NCBI RefSeq assembly: GCF_041886205.1
Contig: NZ_CP169029.1
DNA: 64,000 bases
Direction: 5' to 3' (one strand)
DNA from: Escherichia coli
GTDB taxonomy: Bacteria > Pseudomonadota > Gammaproteobacteria > Enterobacterales > Enterobacteriaceae
Part shown: in pieces, positions 4,408 to 61,276 of the stretch
Numbering within the stretch: position 1 is the first letter of the stretch
Layout of the letters: every line of letters starts with the position of its first letter
Position numbers and translations under genes: made by a program
The notes under the pieces: generated by a model
The model's database searches: none
The model's input: only the letters and a program-made list of their open reading frames with translations
What the model was told of the DNA's origin: nothing

Positions 4408-4542
4408 TCTATCCTCTCCATTAAATCTCCTTTAAAATAAGGCATTATCAGAAATTACTCCTCTCTGGATGTCAACCATCCTCCATGAACATCAAGATGA
4501 TTTCGGGGGCTATTGTGGGGGCTACTTTTCGGGGTTAACATC

Positions 4543-5715
4543 ATGCCACTTACTGTTCGACAAATTGAGTCGGCTAAACCCGCTGACAAGGATTACAAAC
4601 TTTCCGACGGTCAGGGACTTTATCTTCTTGTCAAAAAATCCGGCGCCCGTTACTGGAATCTGAAGTACCGGTTTGCCGGTAAGGAAAAGAAACTGGTGAT
4701 TGGTGTCTATCCGGACATATCTCTGGCTCAGGCTCGTCAGAAACGGGATGAAGCGCGTAAACTCCTGGCTGAAGGAAAAGATCCATCATATGAGAAACAG
4801 GCGCGAAAACTTGCCATCAGGGAAAGTATGGCCTGCACATTTCGCACCATTGCAGAGGAATTACTTACCCATATGGCTCGTCGATGGACAACTGGTTACC
4901 AGGCAGACCAGCGTGCAAGACTTGAAAATCATGTTTTCCCTGCAATTGGGAATCGTCCGGTGACCGGGATCCGCCCCATGGAAATACTGAACGTCCTGAG
5001 AGTTATTGAAGAACAGGGAAAACTTGAAGCACTGCGTAAAACACGCCAGCTCTGTGCGCAGGTTTTTGATTATGCCATAGCAACAGGACGTGCAACCGTT
5101 AACCCGGCGTCAACACTCAGCGGGGTACTGCTTCCTCCTGAAAAACAACAGCGCAGGACACTTTCTGAAGAGCAGATGGGGGCTTTCATGCATCAGATGA
5201 CGGCTTCCGGAAATCTGATGTCGCTGACAACGCGAATGCTGGTTCTTACTGCTGTTCGCACCGGAGAACTGCGGCTGGCGACCTGGGATGAAATAAATTT
5301 CACGGAGGCCCTGTGGGTCATTCCGAAAGAAAGAATGAAAATGCGACGACCGCATGTTGTACCGCTTTCACGTCAGGTACTGGCGTTACTGAAGGAGATA
5401 AAAACACGCACTGAATCGCGTAATTCCGCCTTTATTATTCCCGGGGCATTCAGAAAAGATCGCCCCCGAAGCCGTAAGTGTATCAATGAATTCCTTGAAC
5501 AGTCAGGCTGGCATGCCCTGACAACAGCTCACGGATTTCGTCATACCTTCAGCACCATTCTCCATGACCATGATTTCAGCTCAGCCTGGATTGAACTCCA
5601 GCTTGCCCACGTTGATAAAAACGTCATGCGTGGCACCTATAACCACGCCCAGTATCTGGATGGTCGCCGTGAAATGATGCAGTGGTATGCTGACTACATT
5701 GATTCGCTTTCTTAG
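4543..5715 (+). CDS. P4-type phage integrase (tyrosine recombinase)
   Basis: N-terminus MPLTVRQIESAKPADKDYKLSDGQGLYLLVKKSGARYWNLKYR typical of P4-family integrases; C-terminal catalytic region with HGFRHT and terminal Tyr region. Confidence 0.85.
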   Translation: MPLTVRQIESAKPADKDYKLSDGQGLYLLVKKSGARYWNLKYRFAGKEKKLVIGVYPDISLAQARQKRDEARKLLAEGKDPSYEKQARKLAIRESMACTFRTIAEELLTHMARRWTTGYQADQRARLENHVFPAIGNRPVTGIRPMEILNVLRVIEEQGKLEALRKTRQLCAQVFDYAIATGRATVNPASTLSGVLLPPEKQQRRTLSEEQMGAFMHQMTASGNLMSLTTRMLVLTAVRTGELRLATWDEINFTEALWVIPKERMKMRRPHVVPLSRQVLALLKEIKTRTESRNSAFIIPGAFRKDRPRSRKCINEFLEQSGWHALTTAHGFRHTFSTILHDHDFSSAWIELQLAHVDKNVMRGTYNHAQYLDGRREMMQWYADYIDSLS

Positions 5716-31081: not shown

Positions 31082-33295
31082 TTATTTTTTAGATAAATCA
31101 AATCGGTCATTATTCATGACTTTATTCCAAGCATTAGCAAAATCATGAATAAACTTATCTTGAGCATCATCTGACGCGTAAACTTCAGCTACAGCCCGTA
31201 ATTCAGGATTTGAACTGAATATTAAATCTACAGAGGAAGCTTTCCATTTAAGAGTACCGCTCTTACGGTCATATCCATTATAGACATCCTCATCTTTATC
31301 TGATTTGCTCCAGTAGGTTCCCATATCCAGAAGATTCACAAAAAAATGATTATTCAGCGTACCCGGAGTCTCAGTAAATACCCCGAGAGAAGAATGATTA
31401 GTATTAATATCCATAACACGCAATCCACCTAACAGCACTGTCATTTCTGGAACAGTTAGATCAAGTTTACTCGCTTTATCAATCAGACTTTCAACAGGTG
31501 AAGTATGGTTCCTGTTTTTTGCATAATAGTTTCTGAAGCCATCTGCAGTAGGCTCCAGAAAACTGAATGATGTAATATCTGTCTGTTCCTGAGAAGCATC
31601 AGTTCTTCCTGGTTTGAATGGGATTTCTAGTTTTACACCTGCTTTAGCAGCTGATTCTTCGATAGCAGTATTACCCGCCAGTACAATTAAATCAGATAGT
31701 GAGACTTTCTTCCCATTAGACTGCTTTTTATTAAATTCTGACTGTAATGAAACCAGGGATGTCAACACCGTTTTCAAATTTTCAGGTTCATTGACTTCCC
31801 AATTTTTTTCTGGCAGCAAGCGGATACGGGCACCATTATTTCCTCCTCGATAATCAGTTACACGAAATGTCGAGGCTGAAGCCCAAGCAGTTTTTATCAG
31901 ATCAGAGGACGGAATTCCTGACTTAATGATCTGCATCTTGAGGGATTTTATATCCTGACTATCGATCATAGTGTAATCAGCAGCAGGAAGTGGATCCTGC
32001 CAGATAAATGATTCTTTCGGGATGTTATTACCTATGTATCGGGTTGCCGGCCCCATATCGCGATGAGTCAGTTTGAACCACGCTCTTGCAAATGCTCTCT
32101 CAAAGGCTTTCGGATCGTTCAGGAAATGCGTCGTTATTTTTTTATATTCAGGATCGACTTTCAACGCAATATCTGTTGTAAACATCATTAGCGGATGCAA
32201 TACCGATGGGTCATGTGCATCCTGAACAATGTTTGCTGCGTTTTTAGGTTTCCACTGATAAGCACCGGCAGGACTTTTATGCAGTTCCCACTCATATTTA
32301 TAAAGATTTTGTAGATACTGCATCGTGAATTGCGTAGGAGAGGTGGACCAAGCACCTTCCAGACCACTAGTGATAGTATCTTTACCGTTGCCGGTACCGC
32401 ACTTATTCTTCCATCCCAGTCCCTGTTCTTCGACTGGTGCACCATCAGGTGCAGCACCAATGCATTTTTCAGGAGAAGCGGCACCATGTGCTTTTCCGAA
32501 CGTGTGCCCGCCAGCAATGAGCGCAACAGTTTCTTCATCATCCATGGCCATACGGGCGAAGGCTTCCCGGATATCTTTCGCAGAGGCAAGAGGATCTGGG
32601 TTTCCCCCCGGACCTTCTGGATTGACATAAATCAGGCCCATCTGAGTGGCTGCCAAGGGTTTCTGAAGTTTCCCGTTTTTATCTCTATTATCGGATAGAG
32701 GTTTGTTACCTGGTCCCCAGTATACCAAGTCGGACTCCCAGTCATCTTCTCTTCCACCGGCAAATCCCAGAGTCTTAAATCCCATAGATTCCAGAGCAAC
32801 ATTCCCTGTAAGAACCATTAAATCTCCCCAAGAAATACTAGCGCCGTATTTTTTTTTGACCGGCCACAACAATCTGCGAGCTTTATCCAGATTAGCATTG
32901 TCCGGCCAACTATTAAGAGGTTCAAAACGCTGTTGACCACCACTTGCTCCTCCTCGTCCATCATATGTCCGATATGTCCCGGCACCATGCCACGCCATTC
33001 GAATAAAGAAAGGGCCATAATTACCATAATCTGCTGGCCACCACTCCTGAGAGGTTGTCAATAATACTTTTATATCATTTTTAACATTTTCTATATCAAG
33101 TTTATTAAATTTGCTGGCATAATCAAAATCACGTCCTAAGGGGTTTGATTCAGGACTGTGTAATCTCAAAGGAGTTAAATCCAGCGTTTCAGGATAGTAG
33201 AATTTCTCAGTCCCCTTTTTATCATTAGCCACAGCAGGAGAGAGACTACCAGAGAGAGTCAAAAGAATTAAAATTGGAAGAGTTCTTTTTATCAT
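31082..33295 (-). CDS. katP: Periplasmic catalase-peroxidase (KatG family, KatP-like)
   Basis: 737 aa; signal peptide [23 protein letters not shown]; motifs [13 protein letters not shown] and [17 protein letters not shown] upstream of ATG 33295. Confidence 0.9.
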
Positions 33296-34508
33296 AGAGT
33301 TGCTCCAGTGCAAGGAAAAATCTCAGCATATATACAAAAGATATTTTTCATATGCAACAGGAACCAACTATCATTGAAATCGGTTTTATGAATCAGTTTA
33401 TCACTTTAAATATTTTAAAGAATCACTCATATATATCATATTTTGTGATGTGCTTTGAACTCTTCTCGCTCTAAATCCCCGACACTTTTCTTTATAAAAC
33501 AGTTAAAATAAACAGTATCAATAAGTTATTTGCCAATATTTGAGTGTTACATATTTATTTGGTATCTATTGATTAATATTTCTATATTTAATATATCCTT
33601 ATTTGTTATCTCATGTTTACTCCTTTATAAAATATAATTCTGTTTTATTGATATAAACAAAAAATGAGTAAATATAACATAGACAGAATATTAATACATT
33701 CAAAAAAAATACAATAATATTTATACGGTCTTGTATTTTATTCTTTTTTGTTGTTGCTAGTGGTGCATCCTGTTATTTAATTAATATAGGGATGGTGAAT
33801 TTAATATTTTTGCACAAAATATCATGATAGCACATGCAATAGAAGATCATCAGAGTTAATCTTTTGTGTTGTCTTTTTTACTAGTTATATTTCTGGAGCA
33901 GGTATAAATGAGTTATAAAAATAACTAACACCAGTGAATGAGTGAGTCTCTCCTGAAAAAAATAGTATTGAACACGACTGTTATATCTGATTACATGAAT
34001 TCTAAAATGAGATGATAAATGGAGTAAACTTATGAAATTAAAGTATCTGTCATGTATAATATTTTCCATCTCTGGCGATGGGGCATTAGTTCTGCCCCAG
34101 TTTTCTAATTTTTCATGACGTGTCAGCGAAATAGTAATGACACTATTTACACAATGAACTCCGCAGTTTTTCATACTCTTTGAACAATGTACGTTTGGTT
34201 TTGTAGCCATATTTATCCATTAACATAACTATCCATACAGAATATTTTCCCTCAGTTTTTTCAAGATTAAAGAAAGTATCGCATTCTTCCACCATCAACG
34301 TTCGACAGTCTGATAGCGCTTGTAAAATGACTTCACCAATACTCTGATTATCAGCCTTCGGTGGAAATAAGTGCGAAGGAAAGAGAGGAGCAGCAGCAAC
34401 CATCCCCTCCTTGTCAACGACGGGTAAAAAGTTGCTCTTCCGCAACTTGGGTGGATATTTTCATGCCAGTGGACTCATGCCCCTCTGCCTAAGTAGTTCA
34501 AATCCGGC

Positions 34509-47878: not shown

Positions 47879-48364
47879 CTAATTATTCAGAGGATAAGCT
47901 TTTGAAAAATCATTGTACGTTTCATGAAGATGATAAAATTTTGCATCAGGGTCATTTTTCAGTTCTTCATATCTTTTCATCAGTTTTTTGAATAACCCCT
48001 CTGGTACAGGATAAGGATCTGTCTCATTTTTTGCACAGTAAAAATAGAAAAGCGCCTTTTCAAGCTCTGCAAGAGTTATATTATCCGCATTGCTTGTCAA
48101 ATACTCAAAGGCGTAAGACCACTGTTCTGACAATAATAAGAAATTCAGCGCCGAACCTTTAATAAAAACACCATCAATGTTATTTGAATTAAGTATTTTT
48201 TTACAAAATGACAGCCCCCCCCTCGAATCTTTAACTAATAAATTACTGAGACACTCTAACGCATCATCCTCTGGGTCGTTAAAAGAGTTAGCCTCTACAT
48301 AGCCATTAGCCAGGTAACTTTCTAAACCTTCAATATCCTTTGCGGTACTATTCACATTTATCAT
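47879..48364 (-). CDS. cdiI: CdiI immunity protein cognate to the full-length CdiA toxin
   Basis: 161-aa ORF; ATG overlaps the cdiA stop (ATGA) at 48361..48364. Confidence 0.7.
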
Positions 48365-51300
48365 TTGAATGTCCCCGTATTAACAGTTGAAAGTCTTTTC
48401 GTGCCATCAGGTAATATTGTCCATGTAGCATAAATCCTTACGTTACCGTTAGGCCCTGATACAACAACAGATGTTTTTCTATTTGCAGATGTAGCCCCCT
48501 GAGCTGAGTCCAATAACTTATCCATTATCATGCTGTTATTACTGGCAGTATTCACTATACCTGCTTGTTCTAATACACGAGCCATATCTTGAGAACGCTC
48601 AATATTATGGATTTGTTTTTCTAATACTTCCATCCTTTTAGCATTGTTTGGATCTTTTGCAAATTCTTTTTGGCTGCTAATCCTTGCATCTTTTAAAGAA
48701 TTATATTCTGCTTGCAAAGAATCAAGGTCACCAGAAGCTTTACCACGCATATATAGTTCAATCTTATCGACAGGTATTTTAGCATCACCTTTTACAGCCG
48801 TGATGTGATTTTTCCCATTTGCATCTGGAAGTGAGCTAACCTCGAAACTATTAGACAAGCGTTGTTTACCAGCCAGAACTTCTATCTTACTGGCCGCCGC
48901 AGCACCTATTACTGGTGCCATCGAAGCAGCTACAACTTTCATTCCATCATAAGTTTCAACGTATGCCTGTGCCGTCGCCCTATCGACCCCAAACTGCACC
49001 ATGGCATAGTTCACCATCGCATCCTTCACCTGTTGTTGATTTTGTGCATCAACACTGGTGATATTCAGCAGGTTTACTATCTGCCCGTAAGCATCCGGAT
49101 ACATATCGCTGACTTGGTTATTGTAGTGTCCGGTTTCATAACCTCCTTTAGCTGCAATAACCTTCAGTCTTTCACCGGCACAAGCTGCGCTGGCTGCCTG
49201 TCCGTTACTGCACGCAGTGATTACTGCCTTATCACTGCTGATATCTTTTTCAAGCAATGCATCATATTTCTGCTGTGCCTTTTCACGCTCTGCCGGATCT
49301 TTACTGTTTTTAAGCTTCTGTTTTGCTATCTCAAGCTCTGTCTTTTCAGACACGCTAAGATAATTATTCTCAACCGAGTTCCTGCCTGCCTGTGCCCCCG
49401 TACCGGCAGCACTTGTACTGTTGCCTGCAAGTCCCCCCGCAATACCTGAAGCAATGGTGGCCAGCATGCTGATTTGCTGACGTTCCTGTTCACTCAGGTT
49501 ATCGGTACGACCACCGTAGTAGTTATCAATGATATACCGGGCTGCAAGTTCACCGCTGAATGCCCCCGCAGCACCGGAAGCCGCATTGTTTCCGCCCAGT
49601 TGTGCGGCAAGTGCTCCCCAGACTGCGTGAGCCATCAGGTTTGCTTCCCGGTTATCGCCGGTGGCCTGTTTTATAAGCTGTGCCACTGCCGGATTCAGAC
49701 CGCCAGCCAGTACCTGCCCCGGATTCCCTGCATTCAGTCCGCCCAGCACGCCCGTGATGGCCTGTACCACCATCTGCGGCGTACTGCCCGTACCGTAGCC
49801 TTTCATGACCTCTCTGTATTCCGGAGTCTCCCGCAACTGTGCATCGCTCATGCCAGGATGCTCTTTCCTGGCTGCTTTCATCGCTTCAGTTTCGCCATAC
49901 GTCATGACGATGTTACTCATCTGACCGCTAACCTGGCTGATAACCTGCGCTTCCTGCAGACGCTTCTGCTCTTTCTCCCTGTCAAATATCGGTGCAATGC
50001 TGCCGTTGGCATTTTCCGGGTCCCGGCTGAGCCCGGCAATATCCTGCTTCTGACTCTCCTGATCACGGATAATGAGATTTCCGCCGCTGATGGCGGATGA
50101 CGTGGTACCTTCAGCATGTCCACTGCTGCCGGACATACCGGTAAGTGCGTTCGCCGCACCGGCTATTGCATTTGAGGCCACCATCTGGCTGGCTGACATC
50201 CCTGAGCCACCCGATAAACTGATTCCTGTATGGCTGGCTTTATAGTCTGCCTGGTTATGGATATCCGACCAGCCCAGCGTGCCGGTACTGAGGCTGTTTT
50301 TGTCATCCGTTGCCGTGGACGCAATTACCGCACCATTGAGCTGAGTGTGATTCCCCACAGTGACATCAAACCCGTCTTTTCCGGCGTAGATACCACTCTG
50401 TTCCCGGACAGAATCATAATTGCTTTTAATTTTGTCCTGACTGATGCTGGCATAGCCGCTGCCGGACATTGAGCCAAACGTGAAGCTTCCACCTGCGGCC
50501 ACGCTGTTCTGTCTGCTGTCGTAACGGTCACTGTCCTGAAGGCTCGAAATGGTCAGGTTGTTGCCGACATCTGCTGTGACTTTCTCGCCACTGACCTGAG
50601 CCCCCGACAGGGTGGTATCATGTCCGCTTGTGAGGGAGACATTTTTACCCGCATCCACCGTGGTTTCGGTCCAGGTGGTACCGTTGCCTTTCTCCCTGCC
50701 CTCTGAACCATTGATACCGGCGAAGATACTGAGGCCTCCGCCATTGGTTCCACCACCAAAGCTGACGCCCACGCCGCCACCTTTGCTGCTGTTCTTCCCG
50801 GTGGTCTGTCGGGTGTCAGCGGCGGCAGCCAGCAGAATATCGTTCTGTGCATTCAGGCTGGTGTCATTGCCGGACTTAATCTGGCTCCCGGTAATGAGAA
50901 TATCGCCGCTGTTGTTATGGTCCTTATTTTTCCCCGTGGCAGTGACAGAGACATTGTTACCGGCGCTGAGGGTTGAGCCGGAGACGATATCGTGCTGATA
51001 TTTCGTCTCAGACTTCGACTGCTGATGGTTGAGCGAAATGCTCACGCCGATACCATTATTCGGGTCAGCACTCTGTTGCTGCAGTCCGTGGTTAACACCG
51101 GCCTGTACACCGGACAGAACCGCCTGTGTTCCTTTCAGTACCGCCAGACGGCTGTCGCTGGTTTCTTTCGCCTCCCGGGCCATGGTGGCAGCATTATTGA
51201 TGGCACTGCCCACCGTGCCGGAAAGGGCAACCGTCAGCCCGCTTTTCTTCTGCTCAAATTTTTCGTCCACAGTACGACGGTCATGCCCCGGGTCAACCAC

Positions 51301-54300
51301 CACACTGTCACCGGTAATGCTGATATCCCGGTTCGCAATCACATCCGAACCGCTGATATGAGCCTGTTTGCCCGCAGTAATACTGACATTACCGGCAGTG
51401 GAGCCTATGGTGCTGGCACTCTGACTCTGCGTTGTCCCGGCCTCGCGGCGGTCGTGCGTTGTCTTACTGCTGCCAGTGGTGAAACCAATACCGCCGGTAC
51501 CCGTCAGACCGGATTTCTTCGTTTCCTTAAAGCGCCAGGACGTATCTGTACTGGTGGCAGCAAGAACATCAACATGGTTATCCGCCGCCAGTGACACATC
51601 CCGGTCAGCCACCACAACCGAACCCTGTACCGTCAGGTTATTACCGGCGTTAACGGTCACGCGGTTTCCCGACAGCAGGGAGCCCTTCTCACGGGTGACG
51701 CTGTCTTCCGTGATGGTCCGGGTGGTCTGATGGCTGAGGAGACGGTTACGGGTTTCCCCTGATTCACTGTAGTGATAATCACTTTCCGTGGCAGTACCCA
51801 GTACGATGTCATGACCGGCATTCACACGGATATCGCCCTTTGCCGTTACAGCGGTCGCAACTGAGGTGATATCCCGTCCGGCAGTAACCGTGATGTCACC
51901 GCCACTGGTCATATCTGTTCCCTGCTGCCGGACCGAATCATGAACCGTCTTCATGCTGAAAGTGCTGTCGTGGTCACCTGCGCCTGTGGACTCCGCAGCC
52001 ATGTTCACATCCCGTCCGGCGCGGATATCCATACTGTTTTCAGCCGTAATACCGGCAGCCTGGCTGTTCACATCACGACCGGCGGAAAGCATCAGACTGT
52101 TCCCGGCAGTGACCGTGGGGGCCACGGCATGAGTTTCATACCACCCGGACCCGCCATAGCGACGACGTTCGCCGGCCTGTATCGCGTTCATGTTCAGGTC
52201 ATTACCGGCGGACAGTAACACGCTGTCACCGGCAGAAACAGCGGCACCGGTGATACTGATATCTCCGGCTGCGCCCATAAACAGTGAGTCCGTTGCCCTG
52301 ACAGCAGCCAGCGGACCGGTATCCGTTCCGCTGAAATGGTTATATCCGTTGTTCATCGCCCACTGTTCTGTCCGGGTGAGGTTACTGATGTTTCCGGTGG
52401 CGCTTTCCAGGGATACGGTTTTACCGCTGATGACTGAGCTGATATTGCCGATATCCCCGATGGCGCTCAGGTCCAGGCTACCGCCCGCGCTTATCAGCCC
52501 CGCATTCAGGTTGTCGATACTGCCTGTGCTGTCGAGCAGGAGGTCATTCTGTGCGTTGATGCTGCCGCCGCTGTTGGTAATATTGCCACCCGCAAGCTGC
52601 ACGTTGTTCCCGCTGATAACGCTGCCATTATGCAGGGTGATATCTTCCGGAGACAGATACAGTTTCGGAACCATGACTGTCTGTCCGTTGATGGTGACGG
52701 ACTCCCACCACAGTATGCTTCTGGTCAGTTGTGCAACCTGCCCGGCGGTCAGCGACACTCCAAAGGTCAGTCCGAGCGCTTTCTGTTGCGCTGCCGCGCT
52801 GTCCATCAGGTATTTCATCTGCGTCAGGTCAGAGCCTGTGCCGTTGATATAACGTGAGCCCGTCTGGTTCAGTATGACGTTACTGACATACCGGGTATCA
52901 AAAGCCGCATCCCCCAGAAAGCGGTAATCTTTTTCCGGTTTCAGGCCAAGACGGTCAAGAATGTACGACGAGCCCAGAAACTGTTTTTCATCGGTATACG
53001 CCGGGTCTGTTTCTCGTGGTGCCTGTCCGGGTTGCATCCTGAGCAGGTCATACAGTCCGGCAAACAGACTGCTGTCCACCTTTCCGAGACCATCCAGTTT
53101 CGGGTTCACCGTAATCAGATACGGACTGTCCGGGGCCGTGGACGGGACAAAATAACCATTGTTACCGGATGGCAGGGGATAGCTGCTTACACTTGCCCCG
53201 GACAGCGACAGCGCACCCGGGATATCCTTCAGCGTATCCGGCAGCGCGTCATTCCATACAGGGCCGGTTATCCCGGTACCGCTTTCATTCAGCAGGGCTT
53301 CACCGCTCACCCCCTGACTGACCGTCGGTGGTGTCAGGGAGTTCAGCGAAGGCACCGTTATCGTGTTACCTGCACCACCTGCCCGGGGCATGACAGTGGT
53401 ATTACCGGTGTCAGTGGCAAAGCTGGCAGACACATCACCGGCAGCGCTGATAACCGCACGGTACTGACCTGCCGGAGAGGTGCCACTGGCTTCTGTCGCA
53501 TCCGGCGAGACCTGGCGATAGACCCTGTACCATGGCTCAGTAAACCACGCTTTGGGGAGTGAGCCGGAGGCAAGCCGCCAGACCGTTTCCTTTCCGGTGG
53601 TCCCCTCCTGCCAGCCCTGATTGTTCAGTGTGTCGCCACTCAGGGTCATACTGCCACCGGCGAGAATAAACGATGCCTCATTATCCAGTCGTCCTGCACG
53701 GATATGCATATCAGCGCCGCCGGATATCCTGGCAGCATGGCCGGAGGCACTGACTGTCACCGTATCCGTATCTCCCGTACGGATACGGTATTCATCAGGT
53801 ACCGTGGCACCCTTACCCCAGTACACGGCCAGATATTCCACACCATCATGCCGGACAACACCCCACCACCGGTTATTTTCCGGAACCGGTGAAATCACCC
53901 CGTGACTGCTTCCAGGAATGACCTCATGGCTGGCCGAAATGGCATCCCATGAATTCAGCAGATGCGCCGTATTCATGGTGATATCGCCACGCGTGGTTTC
54001 AATATTACCGGAACGGTTAATGATTTCGCTGTTTGCCGTTCCGCTGCTGTCCTTCTGTACCCACAGACTGTTGCCGGCCAGGATATCACCATGCTGGTTA
54101 TGCAGACGGTCTGTAAACAGCTTCAGGTTATTCCCCGCATAAATCAGCGCACTGTTCAGCAGGGTACCGGCCACATTCATTGTCAGACTGCCTGCCGTGC
54201 CGGTAAAACCACTGATGGTGATATCACTCCGGCTGTTCAGACTCACATCGCCACCGGCCTGAAGTGAACCCGGTGCGTTAAGGAAAAGACGCTGTGCGCT

Positions 54301-57300
54301 GAAAACACTGTTGCCTTTACCGGCAGTCAGCATTCCATTGTTGGTGAATGCCTCTCCGGCACCGAGCACCATGGCATCACCCTGCATCACACCGCCGTTG
54401 GTGATGGCATTTTGCGACGTGACGGAAAGGGTTTTCCCTGCGGCCAGGGTACCATGATTCGTGAGGGCAGCAATCAGTTTCAGTGTGACATCACCGGTGG
54501 CCACCACCTGACCCTGACCACTGAAGTCCTGAGCGTCAAGCAGCAGGTTGCCTGCACTGTACAGCCGCCCTGTACCATTTTGCAGCAGTGAACTGCCCTT
54601 GACGCCAAGCCCGGAGGTTCCCAGCAGGGTACCGCTGTTGCTGAATGTGTGGTAATTCACCAGCAGGTCTGCACCCTGAAGCGTACCGGTATTATTCAGC
54701 GTGGTTCCTTTAACGTCGGCACTGCCGGTGGCAAGTACGCGTCCGCCGTTGACAGTATTCACCACATCCAGCAGCAGGGTGGCAGCCTGTACCAGTCCGC
54801 TGCCGGTGTTCGCCAGCACCTGCGCCGTCAGCGTGAGGTTACTGCCGGAGAGGATTTTGCCGTCGTTCTGCAGACGGTCAGTGGCGTTCAGGGAAACCCC
54901 GCCACCACCCTGTATCGTGCCCTGGTTACTCAGGGTCGCAGTACTGACATTCAGTGCATTCCGGCTCATCAGAACACCACCGGAACGGTTGTTCACGCCA
55001 CCGGAGGCGGCCAGCGTCAGCGTTTCGCCCTGCAGATGCCCGCCGTTTGTGAGTTGTCCTGCCGTGATGGTGGTGGCATTTCCCTGTAATTGCCCGTCGT
55101 TTGTGACACTGTCTGCCTTCAGCGTCAGCACACCTGCACTGAGCAGTTTTCCGCTCGCGTGATTGTTCAGCGTCTGATTCACCGTGAGCGTGAGAGCATC
55201 CACACCGGTGATGTCACCCGCACTGGTCAGTGAGTTCGCCTTCAGGGTCAGATTTTTTGCAATCCATTGTCCGCTGTTGCTTAAATTCAGTGCACTGAGC
55301 GCCATTTCACCGTTCGAGGTGACTTTGCTACCTGCTGTGCTGACAAGCTCACCCGTCAGACGTGCAGTCAGGCTGTCAGCCGCCTGGATCGCCCCGCTGT
55401 TTGCCAGACTGTCTGCGGTGATCAGCACCCGTTTGCCCTGCCAGTGTCCGGAACTGGTAATACTGCCTGCGGTGATTGTCAGGTCGCCGCTGGTCAGCAA
55501 TGAGCCTCCGTTATTCATCAGCGCAGGTTGAGGGGATACCATACGGGCGGCAAGCGTCAGCGCGGCGATCCCGGTGAACGTGCCACTGTTGGTGACACTG
55601 TTCTGGCGAATCGTGACATGGTCACCCTGGACAGTGCCGCGGTTATCCAGTGAATTTCCATCAAGGGAGAGCGTGCCGGCCGAAAGCAGACTGCCCCGGT
55701 TGTCCGTGGTGGCTGCGTTCAGCGTGGTGTCACCCTGGCTCATGATATCGCCGGTACTGGTCAACTGACCGGTTGCCGAAGCAGTAAGGTTACCGGTTGC
55801 CAGCACGGAGCCACTGTTCGCCCAGTTGTCCGCCTGCACGGTGAGATTCTGTCCCTGCGTGGTCCCTGCGGTATGCAGTGTTTTACCCCGGAGGGAGAGG
55901 TCGCCCGCCGTCAGCCAGCGTCCGTTACGGCCCTGTGAGAGGGTGTCGCCTGCAAGCGCCAGTGCACCGGCGCCCTGCAACAGACCATCACCATCCAGCG
56001 TGGTCGCCCTGACGTTCAGCGTGTCAGCGATGATTTTTCCCGGATTGCTGAGGGAGGCAGTGTTTAACGTTAAACCATTATCACTGGTGATAAGCCCGCT
56101 GTTGCGGATGTCCGGTATATCCAGCGTCAGGTCTGCAGCACTGTACAGCGTGCCGTTCTGCTGATTATCAAGCCTCTGTGTGTTAACGGTGAGTGAGGCC
56201 TCCCCCTGCAACAGACCACTGTTGGTCAGGGTCTGTGACTGTGTATTCAGGGCGGAACCAACAAGCACACCGCTGCTGGTCAGTTCCGGCGCACTGAGGC
56301 TGAGCGACGGGGCGCTGCTTTTCCCGCTGTGGGTGAGCTTTTCACTGGCGTTCACCGCCATGGTCTGTTGTGCTGCCTGCGTACCTGCAAGACGTGCATC
56401 TCTGGCGTTGATGCTGAGATTTTTACCGCTCTGAAGCTGTGCGCCCGCTGCGGTACTCAGTTTGTCTGCCTGAACCAGGAGGGTGTCACCGGCACTGTTT
56501 TCCCCGTCCAGCGCCACTGTTGTCACATTCAGCGTCATCGCAGCATCGCTGTGGGTGACCGATTTTTTACCGGAGCTCAGCGCCTGCGCACTGACCGTCA
56601 GCCCTTTGCCGCCGGACAGCACACCGTTCTGTGTCACATCCTGCGCCTTCAGCACCAGTACATCATCGCTCACCAGCGAACCTGTACTGGTCAGTTTCCC
56701 ACTGGCCGTGATATCCACTTTGCCCTTCGCGCCAGTGCGGCCGCTCTGGGTAAAGTCGCGGGTATTCACGGTCAGGGGACCGCCACTGAGCAGGGAGCCA
56801 CTGTTGCTGAGCGTTGTACTGCCGAGCGTCAGGGAAGCCCCCTGAACAGCACCACTGTTATTCAGCGTGCCGGCATCGAGTCCCGCATGACCTTTCGCCA
56901 GCAATATTCCGTCCTGTGTCAGCGTGGTGGCGCTGGCCGTGAGATTCCGCCCGGCGGTTATCTGTCCCTGTGTTGTCAGCGTGTCACTGGCGACAGTCAC
57001 AATATCGCGGGCCGCGTTAATCTGGCTGGCGGTATCCTGTGTGATGTTTTTCGCGGCAAGCGTTACATCCCGGCCGGCAGTCAGTTTTTCATTCTGTTGA
57101 GTGATTCTGCCGCCGGCGGTCAGGCTGAGGTCCTTGTCGCTGTTAAGCGTTCCATTGCTGAGAACGATATCGCTCCGGCTGCTGACGCTCAGGTTACCTC
57201 CCGCTTTATGGTCGCCGGTTAAGGTGACGCCCTGACCTTTTGCAGTGACGGCCCCCGTGGCGAGACTGTTGTTGACAGTCAGTCTGCCGCTGGCATCCAG

Positions 57301-58140
57301 GGTGATATCGCCATCGCGGGCATAAAGGTTACCAAGATTAACCCCGACACCACTTTCAGTGGAGGTCAGATGAATACGCCTGGCGTACATTCCACCGAGC
57401 GCGCCGGTATCAACGGCAACTTTCGGCACATCACCTTCGCCCTTCAGTGCACTGACACGACCATCTGCAGTTATCCGGTTAGCGCCTGCAGTGACAGTTA
57501 AATCCTTCGCATGAAGCGCGGCATTCACTTCCGTTGCACGGGCAATAATGGATACGGCATCGCTCCGGGTGCCGTCCAGGCCCGCGCCATTGATGGTGAT
57601 ACTGCCTTCAGTCACCTCCAGCGCCTGCAGGCTGCCGTCGGCATTCATCACAGGTCTGCCTGTGGTGAGCGTCGCGTGCGGCGTGTTGATAAAACCACAG
57701 CCGTCACAGGTGATACCATACGGGTTGGCAACCATCACATTCGCCGCTTTGCCGGCCACTTCCGTATAGCCCTGCAGCAGTGAACGGTTACCGCCGGTCA
57801 CTTCGTTGATGATACCCTTCGCTTCCCCGCCCGCTTTCAGGTTCGGGTTATTCTGTATCAGTCCACCAAGCTGCGTCGGATTAAGCTTAGCGGTGGCATT
57901 ATTGAGAATCAGCCCTTCCTTCCCGACGTTGTAATCCGTAAACCGGTTATGCGAAATCCCGGCCCCGTTCGGCGTGGCAATGTTCACGACCGGCACACCA
58001 TTTGCCGCTTTATCCATTCCGGCCCCGTTTTGTGGGGTGATGACGGCCCCCACAGCCGGTAACAACGGCTGCCCGGCGATAATCGCACTGACCAGGTAAC
58101 TCAGCAGGCGGTAAGTGAAGTGAACGGGAGGCTGATTCAT
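48361..58140 (-). CDS. cdiA: CdiA contact-dependent inhibition exoprotein (two-partner secretion TpsA, 3259 aa)
   Basis: Extended signal peptide and TPS domain (...[26 protein letters not shown]...), long FHA-type repeat region, pretoxin ...GRNSVENN (VENN codons 49363..49374), 333-aa C-terminal domain; SD AAGGGA before ATG. Confidence 0.95.
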
Positions 58141-58152
58141 GGTAATAATCCC

Positions 58153-59919
58153 TTAAAACGCGACGGCAACGCGCCAGTAAACCGTGAGATGGTCAGGGGC
58201 AAGCCAGTCCGGGTAAACCAGAGGCAGCCCGGCAGTGAACGAACCGGAAACATAGTCACTGGTGGTGCTGAGCCCGGCAGCACCACCCCACAGCGTGCCG
58301 GACGAGTACGGGTCATCTCTGTCAGAGTGCAGCCAGCCGCCGTCCAGTGCAGCCACTGCACGGACAGTTCCCACATATGGCAGGGAGAACAGAGACCAGG
58401 ACAGCTCATTTCGCAGATAACCGCCGTTATTACCGGAGATATACTGCTCCTTAAAGCCACGCACTGAACTCTCACCCCCGAGGCTCAGTTGTTCCACACC
58501 ATGAAGACGGTCCGGTGACCACTGGGCATAAGCGCTGGTCAGCCACCACACCCTGTCCGTGACGGGGCGCTGAAAACTGGCACTCACCGACCATTTCCGG
58601 AACTGATTTACGGGCAGGTCTCCCCTTTTCCCGTGGTCGCTTTCTGCGCCGAACCAGGGCATCCCCCGTGTGAATACCGGATTCAGTGTTCCGACACCCC
58701 CCAGAAACTTGTGTGTGTGATTCAGCCCGACAGAAAATGAAGTGAGTTTACGGCTGCTGCCCTGAAGCAGAACATCATCCAGATAATTGTGAATAATGCG
58801 GTGCTGCAGACCTCCGGTCAGTGCTGTCTTCATGTCCCCGTTACGGAACAGGACATGCGACAGTCCCAGCCGGTGAGTCTGCAGGTCTCCCGTGGAACGC
58901 CACCGCCAGCCCCGGTTATCAATGGTGCTGAGGTAGTCACTCCATGAATACGTATAATCCACCAGGGTATAGCCATACGGCAGACTGACACCGGCGGCAA
59001 AATTCCTCGCATCATGTGACACCGAAAAGTCACTGCTCCGTCCCCCGCTGACAAACCAGTTGTCAGCCAGCCCCAGCGGATTATTAAAGGAAAGGACACC
59101 ATTTAACTGCCCCGTACCGGTATTCTTCTGCCCGCTGTTGTCGATACCCACGCTCCCTGTGACGGGCCATTCCGGCAATGCCGTCAGTGTCACCACCGAC
59201 CATCCCTCACGGTCACCGGGCGATATTTCAATCTGTACCGGCTCCGTACGCAGACGATTAATCTGCTCCATCCCCTGCTCAATATCCCGCAGGTTCAGAA
59301 CCTTCCCCTCCATTCCCGGGAAAACCATCTTCAGGGTGCGGGCAGGAAGGTCAGCGCCTTCCGCCCGGATTTGCTGCAGCCTGCCTTCCATGACCGTTAT
59401 GTGCAGTACGCCCCCTGAAAGGTCCTGCTCTGTCAGAAAGGCCCGGCTGGTGATATATCCCCGGCGTATATAGCCGTCCGTCACGGCATCCGTGACCGCA
59501 GTCAGGCCGGTGATATTCAGACACTGATTCACCCACGGTGCCACCAGTCTGTCGGTTTCTGCAGACGTCAGTCGGGTGGCCCCACTGACAACAATGCGTG
59601 ACACCGTAAAGCAGGGGCCTTCAGTACCGGCAGACGTTTCCGGAGACGGCGTGATAGTCAGCGGCGCACTGCGCTCCAGCGCATCACGCTGACGCTGGTT
59701 TTCATCCAGCAACTGCTGCTGTTGCTGCTGAATTGCACTGCGGTCACCCGGAGACAGCATGGCTGCCGGAGACGAAAACGAAAGAATGCAAAGGCAGGAG
59801 AGGAGGGGAAAATAGCGTGCCACCGGAGAGAAAGTGCGGAGCTTAAATGCGCACTGACCGGAAACCATACCAGGCAACAAATTTCTGTTCGCCAGTAAGT
59901 TATCCTGCCGGTGCTGCAT
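58153..59919 (-). CDS. cdiB: CdiB, TpsB/Omp85-family outer-membrane transporter for CdiA
   Basis: 588 aa of ShlB/FhaC type with POTRA region and beta-barrel; SD GAGGAG before ATG 59919; stop 12 nt before cdiA start. Confidence 0.9.
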   Translation of the reverse strand: MQHRQDNLLANRNLLPGMVSGQCAFKLRTFSPVARYFPLLSCLCILSFSSPAAMLSPGDRSAIQQQQQQLLDENQRQRDALERSAPLTITPSPETSAGTEGPCFTVSRIVVSGATRLTSAETDRLVAPWVNQCLNITGLTAVTDAVTDGYIRRGYITSRAFLTEQDLSGGVLHITVMEGRLQQIRAEGADLPARTLKMVFPGMEGKVLNLRDIEQGMEQINRLRTEPVQIEISPGDREGWSVVTLTALPEWPVTGSVGIDNSGQKNTGTGQLNGVLSFNNPLGLADNWFVSGGRSSDFSVSHDARNFAAGVSLPYGYTLVDYTYSWSDYLSTIDNRGWRWRSTGDLQTHRLGLSHVLFRNGDMKTALTGGLQHRIIHNYLDDVLLQGSSRKLTSFSVGLNHTHKFLGGVGTLNPVFTRGMPWFGAESDHGKRGDLPVNQFRKWSVSASFQRPVTDRVWWLTSAYAQWSPDRLHGVEQLSLGGESSVRGFKEQYISGNNGGYLRNELSWSLFSLPYVGTVRAVAALDGGWLHSDRDDPYSSGTLWGGAAGLSTTSDYVSGSFTAGLPLVYPDWLAPDHLTVYWRVAVAF

Positions 59920-60286
59920 ATTCTCCTCGTGTCGTGGGTATTCAGTGTAAATTAACGTAAGCGGAATGTCAGTGCTGAAATTTACACCAGATAAAAAACA
60001 TACAGAAACAATCCTGTTATGTAAAATCTGGAAAAAATGTCAGAAATGTGATTGAAGTTGTATTTTTCGGAGGGGAAATGGAAAACAAACATCCGTATGG
60101 TAAAAAGGATGCTTCCTGCGGAGTAACAATCCGGGACACAACGCAAGTTCCAGTTCTGGTGTTGTGAATTTGAGTAAAAATAATCGTAACTCTCCGGAGA
60201 ACCGGAGCTTTCCCGAAGCGGCGTATTCTTATAAATGGAAATCCCTGCAGGTAATCACTCTGCCCGATAGCTGCATAATTTGCCTG

Positions 60287-60520
60287 TTAATCCTCATCCC
60301 CGGAGGCAAGCTCTGAAAACCACTCAGGGTGTTCACTGTATGCCACATTCAGCGCATCCCAGGAGACGTCCACATAAAAACTGTCCCACAATTTGCGGGT
60401 AACCACCTCTGCCAGTCGGTTCCTGTTATCCGCCTGTCCGGCATAACCTCTCTCTGCCAGCCACTCATTCAGTTCATGTTCCAGAGACAGATTGATAAAA
60501 TCGTAATCGGACCTTGCCAT
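60287..60520 (-). CDS. Hypothetical acidic small protein (77 aa)
   Basis: ORF with ATG; no recognisable motif. Confidence 0.35.
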   Translation of the reverse strand: MARSDYDFINLSLEHELNEWLAERGYAGQADNRNRLAEVVTRKLWDSFYVDVSWDALNVAYSEHPEWFSELASGDED

Positions 60521-60616
60521 TCCCGTTTCCTTTGCACATTTTTTCAGACACGGGAATAAAGTATAAAAAGCGGCACTCTGCCCCTGTCAAGGTGAAATCT
60601 GCCCTTCATCGCAATG

Positions 60617-61276
60617 TCAGAGATGGTATGCCGGTATTTTGCGGGTTGTTCCCGTCAGGTTATCGCTCGCTTCCACGGACGTTGTCACCACCGGCATTCC
60701 GCTCTTTCTCAGTCTCAGGATATCAGCCGCAATGCGCTGACTACCAGACCAGAACAGCCCGTCCAGTGCAGTCACCAGTAAACCGGCTTCCAGCGCATAC
60801 TTCAGCCGTTCACGGGGCACTTTCACTTCCCGGGCAATCTGCTGATATGGCAATGATGTGTTTTCATTCCCAACCACCCGGCGAATACGATGAGACAGAT
60901 GATACCGGTATGTATCTGGCACACCCGAAAGGCTGGCCTTCAGGCTGTACACGCAGCCAAAACGTTTATCGTTGAACACCACATTTTTCTGGCTGATGCC
61001 CCATTCTTCACGCAGCGCGGCAATCAGTTGTGGTGTACGGGTAAGCAACAAGCGAAAAGGCAGTTCAAAACTGGTGACGTAATCCACATTCAGCAGGGCA
61101 ATACGCAGCCGTTCTTCTGGCCCGGCCTCTGTCTGCCGGCACTCCTCCAGAACATCCAGCCACTGCCGGCGAAGACGGGAGGATTCATTCAGCTCTGTAA
61201 AACAGTATTTATCCGCCAGATAGTCAATTCGTGTACGCATACTGAAGAGAATTCCGTATAAAGATTCAGCTGGCAA
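60617..61276 (-). CDS. Hypothetical protein (219 aa), possible C-terminal winged-helix
   Basis: ORF with ATG; no recognisable catalytic motif. Confidence 0.4.
   Translation of the reverse strand: MPAESLYGILFSMRTRIDYLADKYCFTELNESSRLRRQWLDVLEECRQTEAGPEERLRIALLNVDYVTSFELPFRLLLTRTPQLIAALREEWGISQKNVVFNDKRFGCVYSLKASLSGVPDTYRYHLSHRIRRVVGNENTSLPYQQIAREVKVPRERLKYALEAGLLVTALDGLFWSGSQRIAADILRLRKSGMPVVTTSVEASDNLTGTTRKIPAYHL

Follow-up and report, generated by a model that had tools for sequence, protein, structure and literature searches.

Among the described contact-dependent inhibition (CDI) systems of Escherichia coli, those closest to the locus analysed here are the prototype class I cdiBAI genes of EC93, carried on plasmid pCP127, and the CdiA-CT/CdiI pair of E. 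coli 3006 (EC3006_4140/4139; PDB 6VEK and 6CP8), where CT stands for the C-terminal toxin region. The fragment Arg1358-Phe1646 of EC93 CdiA has been shown to bind BamA (PMC5371414), and class I CdiA proteins can differ in their FHA-1 repeats, as described for the two EC93 loci (PMC8190604). The toxin region of the 3006 protein, numbered Val2921-Lys3257 in EC3006_4140 (PMC9424206), is bipartite, combining a PtsG-dependent entry domain with a BECR tRNase specific for tRNA-Ile(GAU). Its entry into the cytoplasm needs PtsG and the proton gradient (PMC9424206) and depends on the precise removal of the VENN peptide (PMC9424206, PMC9086364, PMC5371414). The substrate is uncharged tRNA-Ile(GAU), with an active site formed by K204, Y208, H256, R260 and T330 (PMC9086364), and tRNA-Ile cleavage by toxins of the 6VEK/6CP8 type is blocked by CdiI (PMC9424206). 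Here we analyse a cdiBAI locus in a window of 64,000 nucleotides, by which we mean the whole stretch of E. coli contig NZ_CP169029.1 (assembly GCF_041886205.1) that was studied, with positions counted from its first letter. Judged from its sequence, the locus is almost certainly an intact class I E. coli CDI system armed with a toxin/immunity pair of the E. coli 3006 type.

The genes lie in the order cdiB-cdiA-cdiI, all on the minus strand, and the open reading frame (ORF) listing places cdiI immediately 3' of cdiA. The cdiB stop and the cdiA ATG are separated by 12 nt, while the cdiA stop and the cdiI start share the letters ATGA (...AAATGATAAATG...). A preliminary description of this DNA had reported three co-directional minus-strand genes with such an ATGA overlap, and the ORF coordinates and junctions are exactly those it gave. 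It had also described cdiA as encoding a 3259-aa TpsA exoprotein with VENN, and had named a frameshift in cdiA as the finding that would overturn its reading. The frame translates without an internal stop, and VENN occupies CdiA residues 2923-2926 (window 49374-49363). A frameshifted cdiA or a cdiA pseudogene is ruled out by the single 3259-aa ORF, whose product matches NCBI proteins exactly; because its length equals that of the cdiA annotated in STEC434 and its translation that of deposited proteins, no frameshift has been missed. An open frame of 9.8 kb is not a chance feature.

A PDB sequence search settled the identity of the toxin: all 337 residues from VENN to the C-terminus of CdiA are identical to 6VEK chain A (337/337). 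This region spans Val2923-Lys3259 here and Val2921-Lys3257 in EC3006_4140; since the toxin numbering is shifted by two, the upstream CdiA backbone differs from that of EC3006_4140 by at least two residues. Together with a one-residue difference in CdiI, this makes it unlikely that the DNA comes from strain 3006 itself. The last 164 CdiA residues match 6CP8 chain A, the 163-residue 6CP8_A construct differing only by one missing Asn near the C-terminus. All five catalytic residues, K204, Y208, H256, R260 and T330 as numbered from Val1 of VENN, are present. CdiI is identical to 6VEK_I and 6CP8_C at 160 of its 161 positions and to the CdiI of STEC434 at 161/161, so the small ORF that the preliminary description took for cdiI agrees with the immunity protein of the crystallised 3006 complex, and its reading of the genes as a CDI locus is supported. 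By its sequence CdiI would be the cognate immunity protein that neutralises this CdiA-CT. Neither the last ~160 residues of CdiA nor the 161-aa CdiI was matched by any Pfam or NCBIfam model. Relatives of the 3006-type CdiI with at least 90% identity occur in Citrobacter, Shigella, Dryocola and Pluralibacter.

The entry domain at the front of the toxin region carries a Pfam DUF6862 match directly after VENN, and the first ~490 nt after VENN are common to hundreds of cdiA genes bearing other toxins. It is homologous to the entry domain of 3006, NC101 and STEC_O31, and its import is predicted to be PtsG-dependent, as found in PMC9424206. The region following VENN has no significant similarity to either orphan toxin downstream of the locus, in line with the preliminary description; the best blastp match between them has E = 1.3.

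The upstream part of CdiA follows EC93, with which the locus shares its gene order. The receptor-binding region is identical at 286 of 289 residues to the EC93 fragment that binds BamA, and for this reason CdiA is classed, by sequence, as a class I effector, presumably of the BamA type. The first 270 residues are identical to EC93 CdiA at 264 positions, which bears out the likeness stated in the preliminary description. Within the secretion domain, the NCBIfam model adhes_NPXG matches at residues 64-163, with NPNL at residue 98 and NPYG at residue 139. In the region of residues 1665-2879 the identity to EC93 Pro1637-Gly2205 is 556/569, and Fil_haemagg_2 matches lie at residues ~2002-2271 and ~2372-2546. 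Compared in windows of 100 residues, the two proteins are 93-100% identical from residue 1001 to VENN and 13-28% identical beyond it, so that the similarity to EC93 is lost exactly after VENN, at the start of the variable C-terminal toxin. In EC93 the toxin and immunity protein are wholly different: the toxin is an ionophore and CdiI has 79 aa. EC93 does possess the 3006-type CT/cdiI in a ~93% identical form, but only as an orphan separated by insertion sequence (IS) elements. The domain search proposed in the preliminary description recovered TPS, Fil_haemagg and Fil_haemagg_2 repeats and PT-VENN (TPS 1e-49, PT-VENN 5e-17). Its suggestion of DUF637/PT-VENN held for PT-VENN only, as DUF637 was not found; judging by these scans, CdiA proteins of E. 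coli do not have it as a feature.

Between residues ~280 and ~600, CdiA departs from both EC93 and STEC434. This block of the FHA-1 region has sharp boundaries and almost no change in length, and the rest of FHA-1, including its flanks, is 94-100% identical to EC93 and STEC434. In the chromosomal cdiBAI of STEC434 (NZ_CP129383.1), the closest complete genome, gene lengths are equal (1767, 9780 and 486 bp) and the CT/cdiI DNA is identical over 1496/1496 bases, but STEC434 carries an EC93-like FHA-1 allele at residues 280-600. In the best complete genomes megablast covers only ~92% of the locus, and the uncovered ~960 bp correspond to CdiA residues ~280-600. That coverage had raised the suspicion of a new receptor class, which was rejected since the unmatched ~960 bp lie in FHA-1 and the receptor-binding domain is 99% identical to EC93. 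At the DNA level the block is at least 95% identical to parts of cdiA in 339 of 5426 complete E. coli genomes, the set on which all genome counts given here are based. On sequence grounds, cdiA is a recombination mosaic of common parts, FHA-1 alleles among them. That the alternative allele changes how long the CdiA filament is, or how it is presented, with a functional effect may be considered as a weaker possibility.

CdiB is, by its sequence, a TpsB/Omp85-family outer-membrane transporter with predicted POTRA domains and a ShlB-type barrel. Pfam matches were obtained for POTRA_2 (residues 104-179, 7e-23), POTRA_3 (182-234, 1.5e-18) and ShlB (239-551, 3e-90), the barrel match being full-length; the TpsB transporter of the preliminary description, for which it had proposed a check of the Omp85 domain, is thereby confirmed. 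The protein is identical to STEC434 CdiB at 578 of 588 positions and to EC93 CdiB at 569 of 588, and NCBI has an exactly matching entry under the name ShlB/FhaC/HecB family protein. This generic family name, together with the generic haemagglutinin repeats of CdiA, is what could speak for two-partner secretion outside CDI, with CdiA as a haemolysin of the ShlA/HpmA type or a host adhesin of the FHA type. Such a system would be expected to have no VENN-delimited toxin and no downstream immunity gene; VENN, toxin and immunity gene are all present here. The PT-VENN domain, a C-terminus identical to a characterised antibacterial tRNase, an overlapping downstream gene for the cognate immunity protein and a receptor-binding domain of the BamA-binding type together refute a haemolysin or adhesin identity, and we regard it as extremely improbable.

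By analogy with the characterised systems, CdiB would act in two-partner secretion to bring CdiA out onto the cell surface, and the central receptor-binding domain of CdiA would bind BamA of neighbouring E. coli. The C-terminal region would pass to the target periplasm, with cleavage at VENN, and its N-terminal entry domain would reach the cytoplasm with the help of PtsG, the glucose transporter of the inner membrane, and of the proton gradient. There the C-terminal BECR-fold RNase is expected to cleave tRNA-Ile(GAU) and to arrest growth, while CdiI would bind and block the tRNase, protecting sibling cells. We infer these functional steps, from export and BamA binding through PtsG-dependent import and tRNA-Ile cleavage to the neutralisation of the toxin by CdiI, from published work on proteins whose sequences are identical or nearly so. 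The same receptor-binding domain, essentially identical to that of EC93, would also fit a CdiA whose main role is that of an adhesin or biofilm factor, with BamA mediating adhesion between cells and toxin delivery secondary; CDI systems are reported to aid biofilm formation (PMC4927057). If toxicity were dispensable, one would not expect toxin domain, catalytic residues and cognate immunity gene to be perfectly conserved, which makes a predominantly adhesive function improbable, and the adhesin and toxin roles are not mutually exclusive.

Gene integrity, domain content, identity to characterised proteins and the receptor-binding class are established in this analysis. Nothing contradicts the identification of an intact, 3006-armed class I system, to which the following caveats apply. 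The CdiI encoded here has N150 where the crystallised 6VEK/6CP8 protein has D150; in STEC434, too, the identical toxin is paired with an N150 CdiI. The FHA-1 block at residues 280-600 differs from that of the experimentally studied EC93 CdiA, so that for this particular mosaic protein export and presentation are predictions. Finally, promoter-like sites upstream of cdiB are no more frequent than in shuffled sequence, and for this reason only their position supports the two candidates found there. Both the promoter and the terminator scans gave counts equal to those in shuffled sequence and are uninformative on expression.

The last point bears on whether the locus, though intact, is silent or cryptic in its host and kept mainly for the immunity that cdiI and the orphan immunity genes would give, or as a recombination reservoir, rather than as a deployed weapon. 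Weak expression in laboratory culture is a trait of many cdi loci of E. coli other than that of EC93, and the promoter scan upstream of cdiB found only weak matches at chance frequency. It has moreover been discussed whether orphan modules persist because they confer immunity or serve as a silent reserve (PMC4927057). On the other hand, the 9.8-kb ORF is undisrupted and does not vary among several independent isolates, which speaks for purifying selection acting on the whole effector, and cdiBAI has been spared while neighbouring island genes are IS-disrupted or fragmentary. We consider silence under most conditions to be possible, if clearly not the more probable state, and compatible with the identification of the locus as a class I CDI system. 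The features of the locus and of the modules downstream of it are collected in Table 1.

Table 1. Features of the cdiBAI locus, its upstream sequence and the downstream orphan modules (window positions; aa, CdiA residues unless stated otherwise)
Feature	Position	Strand	Basis
Two weak sigma-70-like promoter candidates	59944..60025	minus	intergenic, upstream of cdiB; consensus scan, each 9/12 positions
cdiB	58153..59919	minus	588-aa ORF, ATG start
cdiA	48361..58140 (stop codon included)	minus	3259-aa TpsA exoprotein, ATG start, intact
Signal peptide and TPS secretion domain, aa 1-288	57277..58140	minus	Pfam TPS 36-288, E = 1e-49
FHA-1 repeat region, aa ~289-1375	54016..57276	minus	multiple weak Fil_haemagg/DUF5649 repeat matches
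Divergent FHA-1 allele block, aa ~280-600	56341..57303	minus	only ~40% identical to EC93 and STEC434 CdiA
Receptor-binding domain, class I (predicted BamA type), aa 1376-1664	53149..54015	minus	286/289 identical to EC93 CdiA Arg1358-Phe1646
Tyr/Pro-rich region and FHA-2 repeats, aa 1665-2879	49504..53148	minus	between receptor-binding and pretoxin domains
Pretoxin PT-VENN domain, aa 2880-2929	49354..49503	minus	Pfam PT-VENN, E = 5e-17; VENN at 49363-49374
CdiA-CT N-terminal domain, predicted cytoplasm entry, toxin-region residues 1-173	48856..49374	minus	100% identical to 6VEK_A residues 2-174
C-terminal domain, predicted BECR-fold tRNase	48364..48855	minus	100% identical to 6VEK_A; matches 6CP8_A
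cdiI	47879..48364	minus	161-aa ORF, ATG start; predicted cognate immunity protein
Orphan 1, 5'-truncated cdiA-CT remnant with VENN and Gly-rich domain	46985..47652	minus	translation ...VVVENNLLGG...
80-aa strongly hydrophobic ORF, GTG start, candidate immunity gene	46753..46995	minus	overlaps orphan 1 stop; hydropathy profile
Orphan 2, UPEC536-type cdiA-CT (Ntox28 tRNase) with VENN	44973..45896	minus	E = 9e-148 to 5J5V_B
Orphan 2 immunity gene, UPEC536-type cdiI, 128 aa	44590..44976	minus	E = 1e-79 to 5J5V_C, residues 1-128; Pfam CdiI_3

The toxin/immunity pair is already known down to crystal structures and biochemistry (PMC9424206, PMC9086364), and the main cdiBAI genes hold nothing novel. 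Exactly the same 3259-aa CdiA is encoded by 6 public contigs, and NCBI lists it (EFC9575860.1 and others) under the name "contact-dependent inhibition effector tRNA nuclease"; 3 public contigs are 100% identical to the window along 14-20 kb. In complete genomes the same locus is annotated as cdiA and a ShlB family protein. The full 3006-type CT/cdiI module was found in 14 complete genomes, being 100% identical in STEC434 and CFIAFB20190157 and an orphan in some, including EC93. The cdi locus is plasmid-borne in EC93, whereas in STEC434 it is chromosomal and lies on an island. The exact CdiI occurs on at least 1000 contigs and is always named "hypothetical protein"; the locus could help to correct the annotation of the 3006-type CdiI, whose structure has been solved yet for which there is no Pfam or NCBIfam model. 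Its value for discovery is limited, as experiments have already characterised toxin and immunity protein as well as the entry pathway and the receptor class. It is nonetheless a textbook example of the modularity of CDI systems, in which an EC93-like class I backbone is combined with an alternative FHA-1 allele, a 3006-type pair and displaced orphans, and it could serve studies of recombination in cdi islands.

Two orphan modules follow cdiI. The second is a near-identical counterpart of the CdiA-CT/CdiI pair of UPEC 536, a CysK-dependent tRNase and its immunity protein (PDB 5J5V). Here (44590-45896) this CT is not fused to a full-length cdiA and has only ~80 pretoxin residues before VENN; precomputed Pfam matches identify PT-VENN and Ntox28 in it. 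With the main CdiA it shares only the pretoxin stretch that precedes VENN (49% over 67 aa). In strain 1105 a full-length cdiA terminates in the 536-type CT, and the IS66 fragment seen here comes next, an arrangement that fits the displacement model proposed for the origin of orphan modules (PMC4927057). This suggests a 536-type ancestor for the locus, from which the original toxin/immunity pair was shifted downstream. In STEC434, IS21 and IS3 elements take the place of the UPEC536-type orphan region, while the orphan 1 and DUF2569 genes downstream of cdiI are the same.

The toxin domain of orphan 1 had no Pfam, NCBIfam or PDB match, and the NCBIfam scan of CdiI and the orphan proteins returned zero families. 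Against the EC93 ionophore CT the orphan 1 toxin gives only a negligible match (E = 0.006 over 40 aa). In STEC434 the gene is annotated as an incomplete "VENN motif pre-toxin domain-containing protein", and the 80-aa hydrophobic ORF that overlaps its end is unannotated there; its position and hydropathy make it a likely candidate for the immunity gene of orphan 1. The whole module (46753-47652) is rare, occurring in 8 complete genomes, and a relative of orphan 1 with ~75% identity ends a full-length cdiA in E. coli H22. That orphan 1 and the 80-aa ORF represent an uncharacterised family of membrane-targeting CDI toxins and immunity proteins, deployable through recombination with cdiA, is possible but improbable. 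Between the orphan modules (45931-46748, minus strand) lie a low-complexity ORF of 83 or 93 aa (46467-46748) and a gene for a 173-aa DUF2569 membrane protein (45931-46452). This pair may represent what is left of a further, degraded toxin/immunity module.

Next to the orphan array, on its downstream side, are a C-terminal fragment of an IS66 transposase (44182-44559) and an ORF resembling IS3 orfA (43556-43855). Two public draft contigs that match the window at 100% identity cease to do so at about 43942-43944. Further on, a gene for a 595-aa UvrD/PcrA-like helicase (40728-42515, minus strand) adjoins one for a 459-aa TssA/VasL-like protein (39307-40686). The latter falls below the NCBIfam cut-off, and its counterpart in strain 1105 is annotated as a partial VasL pseudogene; it is probably a remnant of a type VI secretion system. 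The tRNA and Rfam scans of the whole window gave no match, so no tRNA that could serve for island attachment lies within the window. The wider window looks like a genomic island. Its first part (1-39000) holds a P4-type integrase (4513-5715), a catalase-peroxidase (31082-33313), several IS66 and ISL3 transposases, genes for UhpB/UhpC-like sensor and transporter proteins and ABC transporter genes, and the G+C content swings from 36% to 58%. On the other side, 5' of cdiB, the minus strand (60287-63993) encodes a 77-aa ORF, an ECs1377-family protein (60617-61276) and a 790-aa ORF (61621-63993), the last with weak helicase and ankyrin-like matches and annotated in strain 1105 as a frameshifted ankyrin-repeat pseudogene.

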